From Nitrospirota bacterium (GTDB lineage: Bacteria > Nitrospirota > UBA9217): a DNA stretch of 64,000 bases. The translations under genes were made by a program, and so were the position numbers. Under the pieces are notes generated by a model. It ran no database searches. It worked only from the letters and a program-made list of their open reading frames with translations, and was not told where the DNA came from. This document shows positions 23,387-53,353 of this stretch, one piece after another; the first letter of the stretch is position 1; every line of letters begins with the position of its first letter. The stretch is from assembly GCA_963741205.1 (NCBI GenBank), contig CAVUHW010000045.1, positions 1 to 64,000 of the forward strand, given 5' to 3'.

Positions 23387-23485
23387 TGGCGGGAGAGCAT
23401 GAGAATCGAACTCACCTTTCCTGACCAAAGCCAGGAAACAGCGGATTTGAAGTCCGGGACGGGCACCAGCTCCGTAACCTCTCCC
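23387..23485 (-). tRNA. selC: tRNA-Sec (anticodon UCA)
   Basis: GGGAGAGG..GGACTTCAAATCC anticodon arm, long variable arm, GTTCGATT, CCA end; 99 nt. Confidence 0.95.
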
Positions 23486-23711: not shown

Positions 23712-25698
23712 TTACGCATTCTTTCGCGTCAATAAATTCACCGCCTTGTCCAGATTGGCATGAGCGCCGAGCAGAACCACAAAATCGTCCGGCATGCAGC
23801 GTGAAGTCCGGGCCGGGGTTCGTCACCGCCTCTTCGCTCCGTGCAATGGCAATGACCGTGGCGCCTGTGTTTTTCCGGATGTCGAGGTCCCGGAGTGTCC
23901 TGCCCGCGGCGGGTGAGCCCGGCTCGATCTGGATCGTGTCCACCGTGGCTCCGGCAAAGAGCGCCGCCACGCGGCCCAGGTTTTCCTGGTCCAGGGATAT
24001 GCCGCGGAGCATCTTGTAGCCCCCGAACCGCACGAACTGGATCTGGTTTGCGATGACGTTGCTCGGGACGTGGTATTCGTGAAGCACCCGCGAGAAGATC
24101 TCGATGGAGGTCTCGAACTCCTCGGGGATCACCTGGTCCGCGCCGAGCTTGGTGAGCTCGTCCACGCCCGCGGCATAGCGGGTCCTGATCAGGATGTAGA
24201 TCGACGGATTGAGCTGGCGCGCGAGGCGGACCGCTATGCGCGTGGCTGCAAAGTCCGAAATGGCGAAGACGATGATCTTGGCGCAGTCGATTCCCGCGCG
24301 TTTCAGAACGTCCTGCCTCGTGATGTCGCCGTAGATGATCGGCTCTCCTTCCTCCCGGGCCCTCCGGATCGTGTCGACGTTCACTTCGAGCACTACATAG
24401 GGGATGCCCGTGGCCTTGAGCGTTTTTGCCAGATTCCGGCCGTTCAGTCCATATCCCGAGATGATGGTGTGGCCGGCGAGCGCGCAGTAATCCTTCTTCT
24501 CTTCTTTCGCCGGGACCGCTCGGGCGAGCCTTCCGGTTATCCACGGCCCGGCCTGGATCAGGAACGGCGTTGCAAGCATGGTCAGGATCGAAGTGTTGAT
24601 GAACATCTGAAACACGTCTCCGTTCATCAGGCGTTGTGCGCCGCCCTGCTGCGCCAGAAGAAAGGAAAACTCCCCGACCTGCGCAAGGCCGAACCCCGCC
24701 AAAAGAGAGCTCCTGATGGGGTAGCGGAGCGCCGAGGCGGTCAGTACGACGAGCCCCGTCTTTGAGCGCGATCAGGAGGACCGCCAGCAGGATGAGGAAG
24801 GGCCAGTGCGCGCGGAAGTAGGCGGTATGAAGCAGCATGCCGATGGAGATGAAGAAGATGCTCGCGAAGTAATCCCGGAAAGGCGTGATCTCGGCGACGA
24901 TGTGGTGGCTGTATTCCGATTCGGAGATGATGATCCCGGCGAGAAAGGCGCCCAGCGCCAGCGAGAGGCCGAGGCTGTAGGTCATCCACGCAGTGCCGAG
25001 GCAGAGCAGCACCACGAGGAGAAAAAACATTTCGCGGTTCCTGAGGCGGATGACCTGGTGGAGGAGGAACGGCACGACCTGGCGCGCCGCGAGATAGACG
25101 CCGAGGAGCCCCAGCACCGCCTTGCCCAGGGAGACGAGCACCGAGACCGGCGTGACGACGCCCGCGGCGCGCGCTTCTCCCAGGACCGGGAGCATGAGCA
25201 TCATGGGTACGACTGCGATGTCCTGAAACAGAAGGATGCCGGTGTCGAGCCTTCCATGCGCCGTGTCGAGCTCGGTGCGGTCGGAGTACATCTTGAGCAC
25301 GATGGCCGTGCTGGAGAGGGACGCAAGGAAGCCGAAGAACACTGCCTGGGGCAGGGGGTAATGGAAGAAGGACGGCGATCCCGGCAACGGCGCCGATCGT
25401 GAGCAGCACCTGCGTTGCGCCGCCGATAAAGAACTGGCGGCTCGATTTCAGGATGTCCTCGATGGAGAACTCGAGCCCCACGGCAAAGAGGAGCAGCACC
25501 ACGCCGATCGTCCGCAAGCCGCTCGACGACGCTGGTCTCGGTGATCAAAGCGGCGCCGTAGGGGCCGATGAGGACGCCGGTGATCAGGAACCCCACGAGC
25601 GCCGGGAGCTTGACCCGGTGAAAGAGATACGTGATCGGGAGCGAGACGGCGAGCAGGATAATAAGCTCCCGGAGAATAGTGATTCCCTGGTCGTGCAT
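23712..25698 (-). CDS. CPA2 cation:proton antiporter (Kef-like) with TrkA-N and TrkA-C domains, frameshifted
   Basis: GVVLLLFAVGLEFS, SLSSTAIV, LFQDI, ALGAFLAG, LAQVGEFSF, GYGLNG, YGDIT. Confidence 0.9.
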
Positions 25699-25793
25699 GG
25701 CCCTATGATAACATAATCCGAAGAAGGATAACAGTGATGAGGGGTGACGTCATTATTCCGAGAGAGCCGCTCTGCGGGATTGACAAGCCCGGT

Positions 25794-27027
25794 CTATCCT
25801 CCCCACCCCGCGATCTTCCGGCGCTTCAAAATCACGACGAGAAATACGGCGCCGCAGATCAGCCCGCCCAGGGCGAAGGTAAGGGGGGACTTGAGCTGAT
25901 GGGACACGCTCCCGGCGAACAGGCTCCCGAAGGGGGTAAGACCGCCGAAGGTGAAGGTATAAACGCTCATCACCCTGCCGCGCAGCCGGTCCTCGGTATT
26001 GAGCTGTACCGTCGTATTGGCCATGCCGAAGAAGGTGACCATGAACCAGCCGGATAGCGCTAGAAGGAGCGCCGAGAGGCCGAAGGATTTCTGGAAACCG
26101 ATGAGGACCAGCGCGAGCGACAGGCCCGCGCCCCCGCCCAGGAGCAGCGCGGGATTCGGCCCTGACCTGCTCAAAATCGCAAGCGAGACCGCGCCGAGCA
26201 GGGCGCCTATGCCGAAGGAGGACATGAGAAATCCGAATCCCGCCGCCTCACGGTGAAGTTCCTGCCTGGCAAAGACGGGGACCAGGACGTTGAAGTTCGT
26301 CGCGAAGACGCTCACGACCGCCACAAGGAGCATGGTGACGAGAACGACGGGCGTGTTCCTGATGTAGCGCAGGGATTCCCCGATGTCTTCGAGCATCCGG
26401 TACGGGCGCCGCTTGCCGGCCGGGGACGCTTTCGAAGGTCATGAGAAGAAGACTCCACAGCACGGCCAGATAGCTCACGCCGTTCATGAAGAAGCAGGCC
26501 GCGGTGCCTGCCGCGCCGATAAGCAGTCCCGCAATCGCGGGACCCACTGCCCGGGCCGCGTTGAAGATGGACGAGTTGAGGGCGATGGCGTTCATGAGAT
26601 CGTCCTTCCCGACCATTTCGATGAGGAATGCCTGGCGCGCGGGCATGTCGATGGTGTTCACGCAGCCGAGGAGCGTGGCAAGAACCACGACGTGCCAGTA
26701 TCGGACGGCCCCGGTCCAGTCGAGCAGCGCGAGGGTGAATGCAAGGACGAGGTACGCAGCCTGGGTCCCGATGATGATCTTCCGCTTATTGAAGTAATCG
26801 ATGTAGACCCCGGCAGGGAGGGAGAGAAACAGCATCGGCGCGAACTGGAGCGCCGAGACGACGCCCAGCTTGAAGGACGAATGCGTCAGTTCCAGTACGA
26901 GCCATGCCTGGCCCATGTTCTGCATCCAGGTGCCGATGAGGGACACGAGTTGGCCAGTAAAGAAGAGCCGGAAGTTCCGGTGGCGCAGGGAACGGAAGAG
27001 GGTTTTGATCATCGCGGTGTCTTGCAT
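25794..27027 (-). CDS. MFS transporter, frameshifted
   Basis: LRHRNFRLFFTGQLVSLIGTWMQ, DMPARQAF, NAIALNS..ARAVGPA, LRGRVMSVY. Confidence 0.9.
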
Positions 27028-27496: not shown

Positions 27497-27850
27497 GGTT
27501 CACACCACCCTGTCTTAGTCTCTATTATAATTATAACACCCGATCACCCAGGCAGCGGTCTTCACGAATCGCTCGCCGCTGCCGCATTTTCACCATGAAA
27601 TCAAAGAGAAGACATCCTGTTTGTGTGCGTCCCCGGCTGAATATCTTAAAGCTTCGATCTCTGTATTGACATCCCGTTCGCATTATCAAGATGCGCCGTA
27701 AAACCTCGTCCTTCAGGGCGGGGATATAAGGCGCTGGTTGCTTCGCAACCAGAGAATCATGCCCTCAAATAAGCAGTGGATAAATGTTCACCTGCTTGAT
27801 ATATTAATTAATATGGATGTATCCAGCAACAGAACCTGAATTCGCAAACG

Positions 27851-29067
27851 ATGACTGCCGTCGGAAAAGTATCAGTGACCGACGATAGCACCGCTCTTGT
27901 GCTTGGGCTGCTAGGCTTTTCCGCGACAAAACTTTGGAACACCGCCGTGTGGTATACCAAGGAAGTCTGGAAAACCACCGGCAAAATACCCTCCTATTCG
28001 AATCTTGACGTCGCTATTAAGCAGGAACACCCTCGCTGGTACCGCCGTCTGCACTCACAAAGCGCCCAGGCTGTATTGGAAGAGCTTTGGCAGTCATACA
28101 AATCATGGTTCGCTCTCCGTAAGAAAGGCGACATGAAAGCCAAACCGCCGGGATTCAGACGGAAAACCGAGCTATCGACAGTAACCTTCAAGCAAAACGC
28201 CGTAAAATGGAACCCGCGGACTAAAACAGCTGCGGTTCAGCATCCCGAAAGACATCTACGGCAAGCAGTTCCTGTATCTCAAAATCCGGCTGCCTGAAGG
28301 CATCCGGCTCACCGAAGACAACATCCAGATTGCCCGGCTGATCCATCATAACGGCAGTTGGTATGTCCACTTCGTATACAATATCATGCTCCCCGAACTG
28401 AAAGGAGCCGGGGAAACCATGGCCATTGACCTTGGAATGAAGCATCTTGCAGCCACGGCCTGCACAGACAAGACCACGGCGCTTTGGTCAGGCGGCGAAA
28501 TGGCGTCTCTTGAGACGGCATTTTGACAAGCAAAAGTCAAAGACCGCCAGTAGTAGGTCCAGAAAAACGTGTGCTCTTAACCAGAAGCGCTCCCGTCAGC
28601 GCACCCACCTGCTCCACAGTTTTACCAAATCTCTTGTCCGCGATGCAGACGCTCGCGGCGTCTCCACGATCATCGTGGGGGACCTTAAGGACATCAGAGA
28701 CGGCAAAGACTGGGGAGACAGCGGGAACCAGAAATTGCACAAATGGCCGTTCGATAAAATCATCAAGATGCTCACGTATAAGGCTAGACTCGAAGGCATC
28801 CGCGTTGTGAAGATAGAGGAAGGCTACACGAGCCAGACATGCTGCATGTGCGGCACAATTTGTAAATCCAATCGTGTCCATCGAGGCCTCTATGTTTGCA
28901 ACCAGTGCGGTTCCGTAATCAACGCCGATGTGAACGGCGCAATCAACATTCTTAAAAGGTATCTCCCGGAGCAAATAAGTGACTCCTGGAGTAGTGGCTG
29001 CTTGGCACAGCCTGCGGTCAACCGGTTTGCCTGGAGAAAAACCAGGCCAGTAGTCATCAGCCCATAA
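27851..29067 (+). CDS. tnpB: RNA-guided endonuclease TnpB, frameshifted
   Basis: KLWN, SQSAQ, PPGFR, AIDLGM (RuvC-I), IVGDL, EEGYTSQTCCMCG and CNQCG zinc finger, NADVNGAINI (RuvC-III). Confidence 0.9.
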
Positions 29068-29179
29068 ACCGGGGACGTGGCATACATCCCTGCCGCATCC
29101 GCGAACAGAATCAGCAGTGGCTCTTAGCGAAGTAAGGGCCTGATTCGGGAATCCTCGGCCTTCAGGCCGGGGAGGATGT
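29000..29179 (+). ncRNA. Predicted TnpB omega-RNA scaffold, interrupted at its 3' end by the intron
   Basis: Position from the tnpB 3' end to the right-end hairpin; hairpin GAATCAG..CTGATTC; 5' boundary is a guess. Confidence 0.5.
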
Positions 29180-30811
29180 GTGCGCCTAGCATGGGCGCGA
29201 TCTTAGAGGTGGAAGTCCTCTAGCGAGTTGACCACAACGAGCTAAGCGAAGCGCAACTGCGTGAGGGTGACCAAACGTGGGGAGGAAGCGTGGAGCGAAA
29301 CCGTGAGCCAATGAAGAAAAATCAGATATGAGGCGCTGGCCTTTTAGGGCAAACAGGCACATCACTGCAAAGCTCTTGTGGTCAATGAAAAAGCTGCGTA
29401 GATCTGGTGGTTGTACGGTGAAGGATCGCGTTCTTACCTGGGGAGATCTCGCCTTATGCCTGAAGGGGCAACGACCTCAAGTCCGGAGCGAGAAGTCAGC
29501 AGCGGCCGTAATAACTGGGCAACCGAGCGAAGGGCCAAACGAGAAGGAGAGTCCGAAATTATGACGACTTGGACGCGCATCGCATCAGAAGCCCGGAAAA
29601 TCGGGGCGAGTCGGAGTTAGCGCAGGTGAAGCCGGCGCTGATGCGACTGCGTGATGAAGCTCGCCCGGCGTGTCAAGCAACAAAAGGACTCAGGGCGAGA
29701 TAATCTGGTACAGCAGGTTCTCTCGCGCGAGAACATGTTGGCGGCGTGGAAACGCGTCAAAGCCAACAAGGGAAGTGCGGGCGTTGATGGGCTCTCAATC
29801 GAGCAAACCGAAGAATATCTCAAGGAACACTGGCCGCGAAATTCGAGTGGAACTTCTTAGCGGAGTTTATTGGCCTCAAGCCGGTGCGCCGCGTGGAAAT
29901 TCCAAAACCGACAGGCGGTAAGCGGGAATTGGGGATACCGACGGTCGTTGATCGGGTGATACAGCAGGCCTTGCTACAAATCCTGCAACCCATGATTGAC
30001 CCAACCTTTTCCGAATTCAGCTACGGCTTCAGACCGGGGCGAAGTGCACATGACGCAGTGCGACAAGCACAGCGATATGTGGCGGAAGGCTATCGATTTG
30101 TTGTCGATGTTGATTTGGAAAAATTCTTTGATAGGGTCAACCACGACATTCTCATGGACCGGCTCGCAAAAACGTATTGCTGATAAAACCGTACTGCGGT
30201 TAATTAGGCGCTACTTGCAAGCTGGAATCATGGCAAATGGGGTGGTGCTAGATCGTTCGGAGGGCACCCCTCAGGGTGGTCCGCTGTCGCCGCTCGTAGC
30301 GAATGTGTTGCTCGACGAAGTAGACGAAGACCTGCAGCAACGGGGTCATCGTTTCGCTCGATATGCTGATGATTGCAACGTGTATGTGCGCAGTCAGAAA
30401 GCTGGCGAGCGCGTACTTGACTCCTTGAAGAACCTATATGCAAATCTGCACCTTCGGGTAAACGAGAAGAAAACTGAGGTGGGACCGGTCTTTGGCCGTA
30501 AGTTCCTTGGCTATTGCCTACGGCGATGGTCAAAGGGAACGGTGAAAATCGCCGTTGCCCCCAAGGCAATCGACACGTTCAAGCAGCGCATACGGTTCAT
30601 CACACGCCGTGTCGGTGGGTGCAGCATGATTCAAGTCGCCGAGCAGATGCGGGCATATCTGCCGGGGTGGAAAGCCTACTTCCGCCTCGCGCAAACGCCC
30701 GAGAAATTCAAAGACTTGGATTCATGGATGCGACACAGACTTAGAGCGATACAGCTTAAGCACTGGAGGCGGGGACCCACGATCTATCGGGGACTACGTC
30801 GTCTTGGGGCA
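29180..30811 (+). mobile_element. Group II intron, class C-like, 3' end missing
   Basis: Starts GTGCGCCTAGCATGGGCGC just after a stem-loop; compact ~450 nt RNA part before the RT ORF; no domain V/VI seen downstream. Confidence 0.85.
29651..30811 (+). CDS. ltrA: Group II intron reverse transcriptase/maturase, frameshifted and truncated
   Basis: AWKRVKANKGSAGVDG, RRVEIPK, LGIPTVVDRVIQQA, SYGFRPGRS, DLEKFFD, GTPQGGPLSP, RYADD, GWKAYF thumb region. Confidence 0.93.
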
Positions 30812-31390
30812 GTCCCGTGGTTTTTGCCTCGGGCCTCAGAAACGCGGTGTTCATGACCATTCACCCGAGGACGAAGCGGGTTTGGGTCACTGAGATGGGC
30901 CGCGATCTGCTGGGCGACGACTTGCCGCCCGATGAAATCAATATCATCGATGAAGGCGGGAATTATGGCTGGCCGTTCTGCTATGGAAAGAACGTTCATG
31001 ACGGGGATTTCGACCCGAAAGTGACGCATTTCTGCCGTGAGCCGGCAACGGTCCCTTCCTCCATCGACATCCCGGCACACTCGGCGCCACTGGGTCTGGC
31101 GTTCTTTCCCGATGAGGGCTGGCCGAAGGAGTTTCGCAATGATCTCCTGGTCGCATATCATGGCTCATGGAACAGGAGCGTCCCCACCGGATACAAGATC
31201 GTACGATACCGGCTGGACAGCGAAGGCCGCTTTCAAGGGGTCGATGATTTCATAAGCGGCTGGCTTGCCTCTGACGGGCGTTCGCTCGGCAGGCCCGTTG
31301 ACATCATGATCCGGCCGGAAGGGACGATCTTCGTTTCCGACGACAAGGCGCGGCGTACTTTATCTACGGGATCACAGAAACAGGAAGAAC
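30812..31390 (+). pseudogene. C-terminal part of a PQQ-dependent sugar (glucose/sorbosone) dehydrogenase
   Basis: FASGLRNA, EMGRD..PPDEIN, GGNYGWPFC, AHSAPLGL, HGSWNRS, GRPVD, VSDD; N-terminal half absent. Confidence 0.8.
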
Positions 31391-31401
31391 AGGGAGGGCC
31401 T

Positions 31402-32574
31402 ATCAAGACTGAAAAGAACGTCATCATCATCGGCGCCGGCGCCTCAGGCCTCCTGTGCGCCGTGGAATGCGGCAAGCGCGGCCGCTCGGTGCTCGTCATA
31501 GACCACCGCGACCAGAGCGGATCCAAGATACGCATCTCCGGCGGAGGCAGAAGCAATTTCACGAACCTGAACGCGTCCGCCGACCACTACCTTTCGCAAA
31601 ATCCTCATTTCTGCAAGTCAGCCCTGGCCCGCTTCACGCCGCGGGACATCCTTGCCCTCGTTGAGAAACATCATATCGCCTGGTACGAAAAAGAGGCCGG
31701 TCAAATATTCTGCGTCAAGAGTTCCCGGGATATCATCTCGATGCTCGAGAAGGAGTGCGAAAAGGCATCGGTGGAGACGCGGCTTAACTGCCGCATAACG
31801 GACATCGGGAAGGACAAGACCTTTACGGTCCACACGAGTGAAGGCATCTTCACATCTGAATCGCTGGTCATCGCCACGGGAGGGCTCTCGTATCCCAAGA
31901 TCGGGGCGAGCGGTTTCGGCCACGAGGTGGCCCGCCAGTTCGGGCTCAGGACGACGCAGGTACGGCCGGCCCTGGTTCCCTTCGTGTTTTCCGGCCGAGA
32001 CCAGCAGGTCTTTCAAGGGCTGGCGGGCGTTTCCCTTGACGCGGCCCTGTCCTGCGGGGCGAAGAAATTCCGCGGCAGCGTCCTGTTCACTCACCGGGGC
32101 CTTTCGGGGCCCGCGGCGCTGCAGGCGTCGTTGTACTGGATTTCGGGAGCGCCGCTCATAATCGACCTCCTTCCGGCCACGGACATCCTCGAGGTGTTTA
32201 CCGCGAGACGTCGGAGCAAAATGGAGATGCGTAACCTTCTCGCTGAATTCCTGCCGAAGCGTTTTGCACAGACCTGGTGCGACTTCATGCTGGTCTCAAA
32301 GCCGGTCAACGAGACTTCGGACAAAGAGTTGAAGGCGATCGCAGACGGGCTTCACCGATGGGAGGTATTTCCCAAGGGGACGGAAGGGTACAATACCGCG
32401 GAGGTGACGGCAGGCGGCGTTGATACCGACGAACTTTCGTCTAAGACCATGGAGGCGAAAAAGGCGCCCGGGCTTTACTTCATCGGCGAGGTCGTGGATG
32501 TGACGGGAGAGCTCGGAGGCTATAACCTCCATTGGGCCTGGGCTTCGGGATTCGCGGCAGGACAATATGCGTAG
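31402..32574 (+). CDS. NAD(P)/FAD-dependent oxidoreductase, HI0933/YhiN family
   Basis: IIGAGASG, KIRISGGGRSNFTN, ATGGLSYP, LFTHRGLSGPA, VTAGGV, GGYNLHWA; RBS GGAGG precedes ATC at 31402 (start codon probably miscalled). Confidence 0.9.
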   Translation: MKTEKNVIIIGAGASGLLCAVECGKRGRSVLVIDHRDQSGSKIRISGGGRSNFTNLNASADHYLSQNPHFCKSALARFTPRDILALVEKHHIAWYEKEAGQIFCVKSSRDIISMLEKECEKASVETRLNCRITDIGKDKTFTVHTSEGIFTSESLVIATGGLSYPKIGASGFGHEVARQFGLRTTQVRPALVPFVFSGRDQQVFQGLAGVSLDAALSCGAKKFRGSVLFTHRGLSGPAALQASLYWISGAPLIIDLLPATDILEVFTARRRSKMEMRNLLAEFLPKRFAQTWCDFMLVSKPVNETSDKELKAIADGLHRWEVFPKGTEGYNTAEVTAGGVDTDELSSKTMEAKKAPGLYFIGEVVDVTGELGGYNLHWAWASGFAAGQYA

Positions 32575-51396: not shown

Positions 51397-51473
<77 letters not shown>

Positions 51474-51568
51474 GTTTAATCACATTGCGGAATGCGGATT
51501 GCGGAATGCTGATTGAAAAAACATGAGCCTTTAATCCGAAATCGGCAATCCGAAATCCGAAATAGAAT

Positions 51569-51645
51569 GCGCCTGTAGCTCAGTTGGATAGAGCAACAGC
51601 CTTCTAAGCTGTGGGCCATGGGTTCGAATCCCGTCAGGCGCACCA
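51569..51645 (+). tRNA. tRNA-Arg (UCU)
   Basis: ACAGC-CTTCTAA-GCTGT, GTTCGAATC, CCA end. Confidence 0.95.
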
Positions 51646-51683
51646 TTCATTAAGATTGTAGACTGCGGATTGCGGATTGCTGG

Positions 51684-51712
51684 TTGACAAATTGTCGTAG
51701 ACGCTATAGAAT
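51684..51712 (+). promoter_or_regulatory. Sigma70 promoter upstream of tRNA-His
   Basis: TTGACA-17-TAGAAT. Confidence 0.7.
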
Positions 51713-51745
51713 AATCTTCGTTTTTGAAATCCGGCATAATATCAC

Positions 51746-51822
51746 GGTGGGCGTAGCTCAGTTGGTAGAGCTCCAGGTTGTGGCCCTGGTGGCCGCGGGT
51801 TCAAGCCCCGTCGCTCACCCCA
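51746..51822 (+). tRNA. tRNA-His (GUG)
   Basis: G-1, CCAGG-TTGTGGC-CCTGG, CCA end. Confidence 0.95.
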
Positions 51823-51877
51823 ATTTCCTTTAGAGACGGCCGATCTGGCCGTCTCAGTTTTTCTAGAGACAGTTACT

Positions 51878-51954
<77 letters not shown>

Positions 51955-52052
51955 TGATCCGCAGTGCGAAATGCGGAAGGCGGAGTGACGCAACTCGTCA
52001 ATCGTGAGAAGAGTGAATCGGCAATCGTCCATCATCCATCGAAGTCGAGAAT

Positions 52053-52129
52053 GCGCCCGTAGCTCAGCTGGATAGAGCGTTGGCCTCCGAAGCCAAAGGT
52101 CGTGGGTCCGAATCCCGCCGGGCGCACCA
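52053..52129 (+). tRNA. tRNA-Arg (CCG)
   Basis: TTGGC-CTCCGAA-GCCAA, CCA end; T-loop reads GTCCGAAT instead of GTTCGAAT. Confidence 0.9.
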
Positions 52130-52187
52130 ATTATTAGCACTATATCAAGAACAGGGCAAACCAGTTTTTTAGTTCTCACATGATTGT

Positions 52188-52670
52188 CTATTCAACGCGG
52201 AACTTCACGGATGCGAGTGAGCAGGCGCTCGATTCGTAGGTCTGCCCGCCGCTTTCCCCGCAGGCATGGACGTAGGTTACCCTGATCCTGTCGGCCAGGG
52301 CCGCATCCCCAAAAACTTTGATCTTGAACATTTCGGGGCCGCCTTTAAAACCTCCGGGAGAAAGAGAGACGAGACACAACTCCTGACCGTGCAGCGATCC
52401 GGCAATAAGCGTTCCCTCACCGCTGAGCTTTACTTCCCCGTCACTCGAAGTCTCCGTAGTCATGCCGTCTGGTAGTTGAAGGATTATCTTTATCGCTTCA
52501 ACAAGGGGTCCTTCATTCAGCCCCATGACAGAAACAGTCATGACGTGAGATTCCGTCGATTTCATGACCTGTCCTGGCGTAGCAGATGATGCAGTGCTAT
52601 GGTCCCGCAATCCTCCGCACCCCGCCAAAATCACCGCAACCGATGCCAAAAGAACGACCTTCCGTTTCAT
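52188..52670 (-). CDS. Hypothetical lipoprotein
   Basis: MKRK..ILAGC lipobox; RBS GGAGG. Confidence 0.7.
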   Translation of the reverse strand: MKRKVVLLASVAVILAGCGGLRDHSTASSATPGQVMKSTESHVMTVSVMGLNEGPLVEAIKIILQLPDGMTTETSSDGEVKLSGEGTLIAGSLHGQELCLVSLSPGGFKGGPEMFKIKVFGDAALADRIRVTYVHACGESGGQTYESSACSLASVKFRVE

Positions 52671-53029
52671 ATCCCAACCCTCCTGGATTAGTATAATAGA
52701 TTTTCCCGAATTTCGCTATACCGCAATCGGGTATTTCTAGTGGTATATTGGCGATCAGAAATATCCTTGACCTCTGATCACGGTTTGTGCTACTATCCCG
52801 CCTGGTTTTGACATAATTCGACCGAATTCAATAATGGCCGGCTAAAAAAAACAATTAGTTATCGACGGGAGCCGCAACTGAAGACAAAGGTCGCGTCCGA
52901 ATCCCGCTGGGATCCGCAGAGGGAGAGAACCGAGGGACGACGGACTAGCGCTGTAGTTGAATCCTTTCTCGTTCCGTGAGCGATGTGGACGGTCATCCTG
53001 CATTCGTCATGGTTTTATTCAGATTTATG

Positions 53030-53058
53030 TTGCATACCTCCTCAGAGATAAGTATAAT
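53030..53058 (+). promoter_or_regulatory. Sigma70 promoter upstream of tRNA-Lys
   Basis: TTGCAT-17-TATAAT. Confidence 0.7.
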
Positions 53059-53099
53059 GTAGCCGTTTTGCATCTGGTACTCTCACAATTAATTACGAT

Positions 53100-53175
<76 letters not shown>

Positions 53176-53270
53176 GAACAACAACAGGGGAGCAGTGGGT
53201 TATGGGCAGGAATCCATGAGAGTGGGTGCTGCACAAGGCTCACTGCTTTCTTATTATCTAATGGCGTGAA

Positions 53271-53353
53271 GCGAGAGTGGCGGAACTGGCAGACGCGCCA
53301 GACTTAGGATCTGGTGGGTGACCGTGGGGGTTCAAGTCCCCCCTCTCGCACCA
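53271..53353 (+). tRNA. tRNA-Leu (UAG)
   Basis: CCAGA-CTTAGGA-TCTGG, variable arm, CCA end. Confidence 0.95.

Follow-up and report, generated by a model that had tools for sequence, protein, structure and literature searches.

The first 64,000 nucleotides (nt) of contig CAVUHW010000045.1 (assembly GCA_963741205.1, forward strand) from a Nitrospirota bacterium, termed here the window, contain a tnpB gene located within an element assigned to the IS200/IS605 insertion sequence (IS) family. Pfam detects the OrfB_IS605 and TNB zinc-ribbon domains in its product. Directly downstream, on the same strand and in the same orientation, is a group II intron assigned to class C (IIC), which interrupts the right end of the IS. 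From a comparison of related loci there appears to be an intron lineage specialized in invading IS200/IS605 ends. It is this general phenomenon that is of interest, the window copy being a truncated example of it. Features are listed in Table 1.

Table 1. Features of the insertion sequence and its intron in the window, by position
Feature	Position	Strand	Basis or remark
Left flank TTATCAA	27683..27689	+	Presumed target site and transposon-adjacent motif (TAM): TCAA at 27686-27689; IS starts at 27690
Left-end subterminal hairpin CCTCGTCC-TTCA-GGGCGGGG	27704..27723	+	Fold; conserved in IS copy L002
tnpB	27851..29067	+	Pfam OrfB_IS605 and Cas12f1-like_TNB; at least three frames in the present assembly
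Omega-RNA-like scaffold overlapping the tnpB 3' end (sub-threshold)	28957..29173	+	Rfam RF02656 sot0042, whole model 1-174
Right-end subterminal hairpin CCTCGGCC-TTCA-GGCCGGGG	29153..29172	+	Arms 29153-29160 and 29165-29172, loop TTCA 29161-29164; preceded by GGAATC; fold and covariation over 15 right ends
Intron-binding site 1 (IBS1) GATGT	29175..29179	+	Its final T opens the IS terminal TCAA; complementary to ACATC at 29359-29363
Group II intron of class C (IIC), first 1631 of about 1832 nt	29180..30810	+	Rfam, Pfam, blastn, comparison with intron L014
Ribozyme domains I-IV core	29261..29433	+	RF02001
Exon-binding site 1 (EBS1) loop ACATC	29359..29363	+	Column analysis of the intron alignment
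Intron-encoded reverse transcriptase (RT)/maturase, three frames, cut at about residue 431 of the 471-residue L014 open frame	29651..30810	+	Pfam, frame comparison with L014, contigs of other samples
Breakpoint: intron before it, 5'-truncated glucose/sorbosone dehydrogenase-like gene after it	30810..30811	.	Pfam, contig divergence

A transposon right end split by an intron

By its sequence traits the window element is a tnpB-only (IS1341-like) member of the IS200/IS605 family that starts at 27690 and would end 3 nt beyond 29179. It displays subterminal hairpins at both ends, tetranucleotide-specific insertion and a TCAA right end, and has no terminal inverted repeats. TTATCAA is found directly 5' of the conserved left end in all three copies of the source genome (50 contigs, 84% complete), with no likeness farther upstream, and its TCAA presumably represents the TAM. 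Folded as single-stranded DNA (ssDNA), the left-end hairpin has a free energy of -10.6 kcal/mol (z = -2.96). Neither the window open reading frames (ORFs) nor their Pfam matches reveal a tnpA between 27690 and 29179, and the window copy is therefore non-autonomous. When queried by tblastn with an intact 425-amino-acid (aa) TnpB from another copy in the genome (L002), the window tnpB changes frame near 28224-28249, 28510-28550 and 29052-29054.

The right-end hairpin has a 9-bp stem of -8.5 kcal/mol as ssDNA (z = -2.25), a modest value taken alone. The stem is maintained by covariation, however, as assessed over 15 right ends with 14 distinct rows: pairing holds in 96% of cells, two-sided changes are present in six of the nine pairs, and the covariation score was equalled in none of 500 shuffles. 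The hairpin is followed by AGGATGT (29173-29179) and then by GTGCG (29180-29184), which fits the group II 5' motif GUGYG. Nearly all blastn matches between the first 470 nt of the intron and its relatives begin at query base 1, and this places the 5' end of the intron at 29180.

Intron-free copies in the source genome end in GGAGGATGT-CAA. Copy L002, 91% identical to the window IS and with both Pfam domains in its intact TnpB, and the internally deleted copy L004 read GGCCGGGGAGGATGT-CAA, and the solo right end L005 reads GGAGGACGT-CAA; beyond this point the sequences diverge. TCAA ends all three of these right ends. As the intron-free copies read on to CAA, the IS ends in TCAA, and the intron, inserted 3 nt short of this end, separates the T from the CAA. 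An earlier sequence-only reading of the window had described the hairpin with its TTCA loop, AGGATGT and the intron start at 29180 in tnpB orientation, and this is confirmed base for base. It had further proposed that the intron splits the terminal TCAA, and the intron-free copies do reach 3 nt beyond 29179 instead of ending at or before it. Its reference to class C introns and its statement that the 3' end is missing as assembled also hold, the end coordinate that it gave (30811) being right to within one base.

Of 41 genomes belonging to the same family, 14 contain the 14-nt end motif GGNGAGGATGTCAA, with 91 occurrences in total, and the reversed control has none, which shows that the window right end belongs to a prolific family of IS and miniature elements. 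Miniature derivatives of the window IS, about 430 nt in length, are found in congener G011. These consist of the left end and the last ~270 nt including the right end, with no tnpB, and are present at positions 1147-1579 of one contig (L297, G011:C3) and in at least seven other places.

TnpB takes its guide from the DNA immediately outside the right end (PMC10690162; PMC12558985). In the window a sub-threshold match places an omega-RNA-like scaffold immediately before the intron. The match is to RF02656, a haloarchaeal sotRNA family now interpreted as omega-RNA (PMC12558985); it has an E-value of 2e-10 and 44.6 bits, below the 88-bit cut-off, and ends 6 nt before the intron start. A match to HgcC at the right end is likewise sub-threshold (E = 0.012), and at gathering thresholds Rfam reports no omega-RNA family there.

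The intron and its state in the window

Judged by its protein, the intron is of class IIC, with RT and maturase domains and no endonuclease (En) domain. RVT_1 and GIIM are detected by Pfam within 29884-30856, and the RF02001 model of group II domains I-IV scores 105 bits against a cut-off of 32. The 456-aa protein of the full-length relative L014 aligns over residues 48-455 to residues 3-410 of the GsI-IIC RT (6ar1), which is its best solved relative (E = 1e-132). The protein of a IIC ribonucleoprotein (RNP), 7uim, is second (E = 3e-88), and IIB and IIA proteins follow at 1e-39 or weaker.

The insertion geometry is also of the IIC type, with the foot of the 9-bp stem 6 nt before the splice site and a short IBS1. 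The EBS1 stem-loop is located about 175 nt into the intron. Its loop reads ACATC in the window and in L014, CTATC in L015, and consists of A-rich pentamers in terminator-homing relatives. The window ACAUC and the GAUGU that ends the 5' exon form perfect Watson-Crick pairs. Over 78 unique introns, EBS1-IBS1 pairing averages 4.36 of 5 positions, compared with 2.70 +/- 0.12 when exons are shuffled (maximum 3.13 in 2000 shuffles). No sign of an IBS2 pairing was seen.

As assembled, the window copy lacks domain V, domain VI and about 40 codons at the end of the intron protein, and without these domains it cannot splice. Homology to the full-length intron protein ends at 30814 (residue 431 of the 471-residue frame of L014), a near-identical contig departs from the window after 30810, and the GSDH Pfam match after the breakpoint starts at profile position 175 of 332, the first half of that gene being absent. 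A domain V/VI fitting the intron was found neither in the window with Rfam nor elsewhere in the 50-contig genome with blastn, where the last 269 nt of L014 gave a best E-value of 0.25. Matches to RF00029 on source-genome contigs C10, C14, C12 and C9 were considered as the missing 3' end and rejected, as they belong to other intron classes (RF02005).

Two of these contigs display intron arrangements of their own. In C10 (80217-84578; L007, L009, L011 and L012), four domain V/VI-like matches occur within 4.4 kb together with two RF02005 D1-D4 matches; judged from these matches, several group II introns of a different class are nested or arrayed in tandem here. In C9 (L013, 1907-2127, minus strand), an RF02005 core is followed by a domain V about 330 nt downstream and a 3' flank CGTCAA. 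With only a few hundred bases between core and domain V, the L013 intron is probably ORF-less.

Among sequencing runs that share words with the genome, no RNA run was listed, and the DNA runs had small shares (0.05-0.12). Contigs from four soil metagenome runs were compared with the window over 28900-31300; with word shares of 0.08-0.12, these runs are not the source sample. Near-identical contigs lack one window base at 29054, 29566, 29649, 29677, 29883 and 30168, and those lacking the base at 29883 and at 30168, both of them positions where the RT frame breaks, otherwise match the window perfectly. Neighbouring genes at 23738-27027 and 30817-32574 are likewise spread over overlapping frames or run together in a single frame. 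Affected are a Kef-like and an MFS-like transporter, as well as a fragment of a dehydrogenase joined to an HI0933-like flavoprotein. Together, the broken neighbours and the single surplus bases indicate a noisy, indel-prone assembly rather than pseudogenes, and the frameshifts of the window tnpB and RT are probably consensus errors and not decay.

The truncation might have the same origin. If 30810/30811 is a chimeric join or a collapsed repeat, the genome would hold the complete intron, which might be active, with CAA and the IS flank after it. The surplus bases and broken neighbours are consistent with this, as is the 5' truncation of the gene after the breakpoint. Contigs of runs X1 and X5 match the window to 30810 and then continue differently, and translation by eye of the X5 contig past this point gives the continuation expected for the intron protein. 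No contig in the four runs bridges the junction, however, the bins right after it are uncovered, and the runs, which come from other samples, are uninformative on the junction in the source genome. Moreover, a search of the other contigs of the 84%-complete genome did not find the intron 3' end, and truncated and internally deleted relics of the lineage are common elsewhere. An assembly artefact is a serious possibility, to which somewhat less than even weight is given. The window copy is either a dead relic or the product of mis-joining.

Recurrence at IS200/IS605 ends

Eighty loci were drawn by RT similarity from one-genome-per-species contigs, with the longest RT frame as query. Sixty-three unique 5' junctions had 40 nt or more of upstream sequence. 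Fifty-five of these are terminator-like, having a stable hairpin and four or more T in the last 9 nt, two are IS ends, two follow another intron and four are of other kinds. Both IS-end junctions belong to the two closest relatives of the window intron. In L014, from a Methylacidiphilaceae metagenome-assembled genome (83% RT identity), the order is tnpA, tnpB, right-end hairpin, AGGATGT and a 1832-nt intron ending in CCGAT, followed by CAAGCA. In L015, from Verrucomicrobia bacterium LP2A (82% identity), the intron lies behind the left-end hairpin of a tnpB element, with GGGCGGGGAAGGCTAG directly before it. A multicopy cousin of the terminator type was also observed in G020, of the same family and another genus as the source genome; it is found at eight contig ends (e.g. 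L296), where it breaks the assembly, and its 5' exon is a hairpin with a T-run.

A scan with the EBS1 stem-loop pattern of the clade, CAGGCNNATCACTGCNAAGCT, returned 79 loci, 32 on genome contigs and 47 on metagenome contigs, most of which are chance matches. From these, blastn recovered 20 intron 5' junctions: 16 at right ends, two at left ends and two in which an intron follows an intron, both from the same tandem site. The right-end junctions show a hairpin and (G)GAGGATGT before the intron, three of them, all from one site, reading GGAGGGTGT; the left-end junctions show a hairpin and AAGGATAG or AAGGCTAG. When repeats are collapsed, and the window, Escherichia coli NZ_CP169399.1 and congener G004 are counted with the scan loci, there are 14 independent right-end insertions at a hairpin plus GGAGGATGT (in one case GGAGGGTGT). 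Their hosts span several phyla and include Verrucomicrobia, Enterobacterales, Burkholderiales and Dissulfurispiraceae. All 14 introns carry the loop ACAUC, complementary to GAUGU. The sequence-only reading had anticipated a 3' exon starting with CAA in full-length copies; this is the case in seven of the eight insertions with a known 3' junction, and in the eighth the exon starts with CGA. Every one of the 17 unique introns with an ACATC loop is located at an IS-end site of this kind, with an IBS1 of GATGT (14), GGTGT (one) or GATAG (one) or in tandem (one). A search of genome contigs with the junction pattern GGAGGANGTGTGCGCC (80 of 120 stretches examined) gave no blastn match to the intron, its hits being chance matches in GC-rich genomes.

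Full-length members are present in two further organisms. Within a set of 5426 complete E. coli genomes, some match was found in 256 and a near-full-length copy in three. The gene order in NZ_CP169399.1 is tnpA, InsQ/TnpB, the intron gene ltrA and yedK, and the junctions are GGCGTGGAGGATGT/GTGCG and CCGAT/CAATAA. Congener G004 (L295) carries a full-length intron with an open 409-aa RT/maturase frame, inserted directly after GGCCGGGGAGGATGT and followed by CAACTC. L014, L295 and the E. coli intron (L293) share a conserved 3' end with a terminal hairpin, read by eye as domain VI, and then the exon; on L014 and L293, RF00029 stays below its cut-off. The occupied elements of L014 and L293 carry tnpA. 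In most full-length relatives the last intron base is T, and GAT/CAA recreates TCAA after the terminal, domain VI-like hairpin; the G004 intron ends GCT/CAA.

When EBS1 is masked, a tree of the initial 300 nt groups the 18 IS-end introns in a single exclusive clade (support 0.875). Derivatives within the lineage include ORF-less or internally deleted introns (L286, L292, L261 and L287 on metagenome contigs, L216 and L280) of 477-483, 640 and 1135 nt in which both ends are kept; a 477-483-nt form is found behind a 12-bp hairpin whose stem includes GGAGGATGT. In Verrucomicrobia bacterium LP2A (JAFS01000001.1, ~126508-132360), two introns, L231 and L232, are arranged head to tail behind one right-end hairpin, after an AcrB-family gene. 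This tandem pair is consistent with successive homing events at one and the same 5' exon, with that exon as the only guide.

What is located upstream of the 14 sites varies. TnpB is encoded at six (the window, L244, L271, L227, the L290 group and E. coli), and one element has only tnpA, a Y1 transposase gene. In two cases a left-end homologue is situated 370-540 nt away, as in a miniature element; no transposase gene was found at four, and one site is at a contig end. Left-end hairpins followed by GGATAG are used as well. One intron at such an end keeps the loop ACATC, with three of five pairs, and another, with CTATC, is perfectly complementary to GATAG and pairs at four of five positions with its own exon, GCTAG. 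Because tnpB-less miniatures, a tnpA-only element and two left ends are occupied, the specificity, as read from these junctions, is for an IS200/IS605 end hairpin and about 5 nt (GAUGU), not for TnpB.

Elsewhere in the window, seven tRNA genes are clustered at 51397-53350 (plus strand), and a selenocysteine tRNA (RF01852, 63.5 bits) is encoded at 23391-23485 (minus strand).

A probably retargeted intron lineage: proposed mechanism, alternatives and significance

It is very probable that a clade of IIC introns, inside an otherwise terminator-homing family, has invaded the IS200/IS605 right end, and that this represents parasitism of a widespread, structured site exposed as ssDNA. The EBS1 loop of the clade would have become ACAUC, which can pair with GAUGU, located after the right-end hairpin and before the tetranucleotide cleaved by TnpA. 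IIC RNPs recognize a structured DNA stem-loop together with a short IBS1 (PMC10190682; PMC1702495), and as with other IIC introns, the RNP of this clade most likely reads the stem-loop and the 5-nt IBS1 on ssDNA. The intron would then reverse-splice into the top strand of the folded transposon end, between T and CAA and in tnpB orientation.

Consequences may be expected for both DNA and RNA. In IS608, TnpA identifies TCAA, its right cleavage site, which is situated 10 nt 3' of the hairpin foot, through pairing with a guide 5' of the foot, and mutation or deletion of TCAA abolishes robust formation of the TnpA complex (PMC3201880). The right end of the window IS has the same geometry, 6 nt and TCAA. 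An occupied end would present TGTG in place of TCAA, with the hairpin parted from the cleavage site, and TnpA would presumably no longer cut. An unspliced scaffold RNA would carry intron sequence instead of CAA and the flank-derived guide. Splicing would restore GGAGGAUGU-CAA-guide, and a correctly guided TnpB RNP might form only after it.

Several points weigh against this interpretation. Among the 41 family genomes, 91 sites are empty and only that of the window is occupied, G004 being outside that draw, and two sites in the window genome itself with a perfect IBS1, L002 and L004, are empty; homing is thus rare or the window copy inactive. For every member, splicing, omega-RNA formation, TnpA cleavage and retrohoming are inferred from sequence. 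The omega-RNA call depends on the sub-threshold Rfam match, and the 30810/30811 junction could be an assembly artefact. The tree is built from 300 nt with midpoint rooting. The clade was sampled with a pattern that holds clade-specific stem bases, so that its uniformity is partly built in; independent support for recurrence is provided by the RT-based sample, E. coli and the congener.

It might be argued that the insertion is a single event in which a terminator-homing intron chanced upon a terminator-like hairpin, transposon ends not being a specific target. Terminators are the habit of the wider family (55 of 63 junctions), and IIC introns have been reported after "other inverted repeats" (PMC1702495). 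The window 5' exon, however, has no T-run, and its EBS1 is ACAUC, compared with the A-rich loops of relatives. Those loops pair with GATGT at 2.26 of 5 positions, and ACAUC pairs with the exons of the relatives at 1.67 of 5. The same junction is present at 13 other independent loci, and these introns constitute one clade. A chance landing is scarcely credible, being largely refuted already by recurrence, pairing and the tree. The position of the intron might be explained by selection, the intron being a regulator or dedicated parasite of TnpB whose splicing gates the guide-bearing omega-RNA. Consistent with this are insertion in tnpB orientation 3 nt before the IS end, repeated at 14 independent sites, the end of the omega-RNA-like match only 6 nt upstream of the intron, and the full-length TnpB frames kept in the occupied elements L271 (442 aa) and L227 (416 aa). 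Yet elements without tnpB (miniatures and the tnpA-only element) and two left ends are occupied by the same lineage, one site in 92 is occupied in the family sample, ORF-less and truncated relics are common, and recognition of the hairpin and IBS1 fully explains the position. Gating of TnpB as the selected role is improbable.

Since occupied sites are rare and tnpB-less targets are used, parasitism is the better reading than regulation. The sequence-only reading had left both open; low occupancy, about one site in 92, speaks against a built-in regulator. It had also raised enrichment at TnpB ends, and here the recurrence at IS200/IS605 ends, as distinct from any hairpin, is borne out, but TnpB itself is not the target. 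A bolder form of the proposal, in which the IIC clade is specialized for the point where the TnpA cleavage site, the omega-RNA scaffold end and the guide start meet, with the element locked and TnpB correctly guided only upon splicing, is unlikely. If true, it would set a retroelement, a DNA transposon and an RNA-guided nuclease against one another in a three-way conflict, similar to IStrons and independent of them, and might provide a natural splicing-gated guide RNA.

Bacterial IIC introns such as B.h.I1 and GsI-IIC home behind intrinsic terminators. The window lineage has in common with these a small En-less RT/maturase, a 5-nt EBS1-IBS1 pairing and insertion a few bases 3' of a stem-loop (PMC1702495; PMC3522654). 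It differs in its target, an IS200/IS605 subterminal hairpin, in its IBS1, which is GAUGU and not a U-run, and in its insertion within another mobile element, where it splits the cleavage tetranucleotide. RmInt1, a IIB-type intron, homes into ISRm2011-2 and recognizes sequence in or near IS ends by a longer EBS-IBS pairing. A multicopy IS is the homing site in both cases, but the window lineage most likely reads structure and 5 nt at a single-strand transposon end.

IIC is the only intron class reported with integrons (PMC7923331). As with the introns associated with integron attC sites, the present lineage is of class IIC and retargeted to a folded single-strand recombination site of another mobile system; the target here is instead a TnpA (HUH/Y1) end, which is also where a guide RNA has its 3' boundary. 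In IStrons, too, a self-splicing intron and a TnpB omega-RNA share a transposon end, where splicing and guide formation can interfere (PMC4227781; PMC10690162). The accessible parts of the IStron papers treat group I introns only. An IStron contains a group I ribozyme that is integral to an IS607/IS605-type element and co-transposes with it, whereas the window intron is a secondary group II invader that brings its own RT, occurs in few of the copies and would be expected to block transposition of the host element. The distinction from group I IStrons that had been made from the sequence stands, as the ribozyme is of group II and most IS copies are without it.

In the accessible literature no description of a group II intron at this site of an IS200/IS605 element was found; subscription journals, intron databases and supplements lay outside the search, and a prior description is possible. 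The accessible parts of PMC10690162, PMC13565253, PMC7923331 and PMC3522654 describe no intron at the present site.

A lineage of this kind would add a third structured single-strand target of IIC introns, besides terminators and attC sites, and would link two elements that both act on lagging-strand ssDNA. For annotation, it explains recurring fragments with GTGCG right after a hairpin beside tnpB genes. Since the insertion is 3 nt from the start of the TnpB guide, full-length members, namely the E. coli chromosomal copies beside yedK and the apparently intact copy of the congener, offer a direct test of a splicing-gated RNA-guided nuclease. They also allow a test of whether the split cleavage site immobilizes the transposon.

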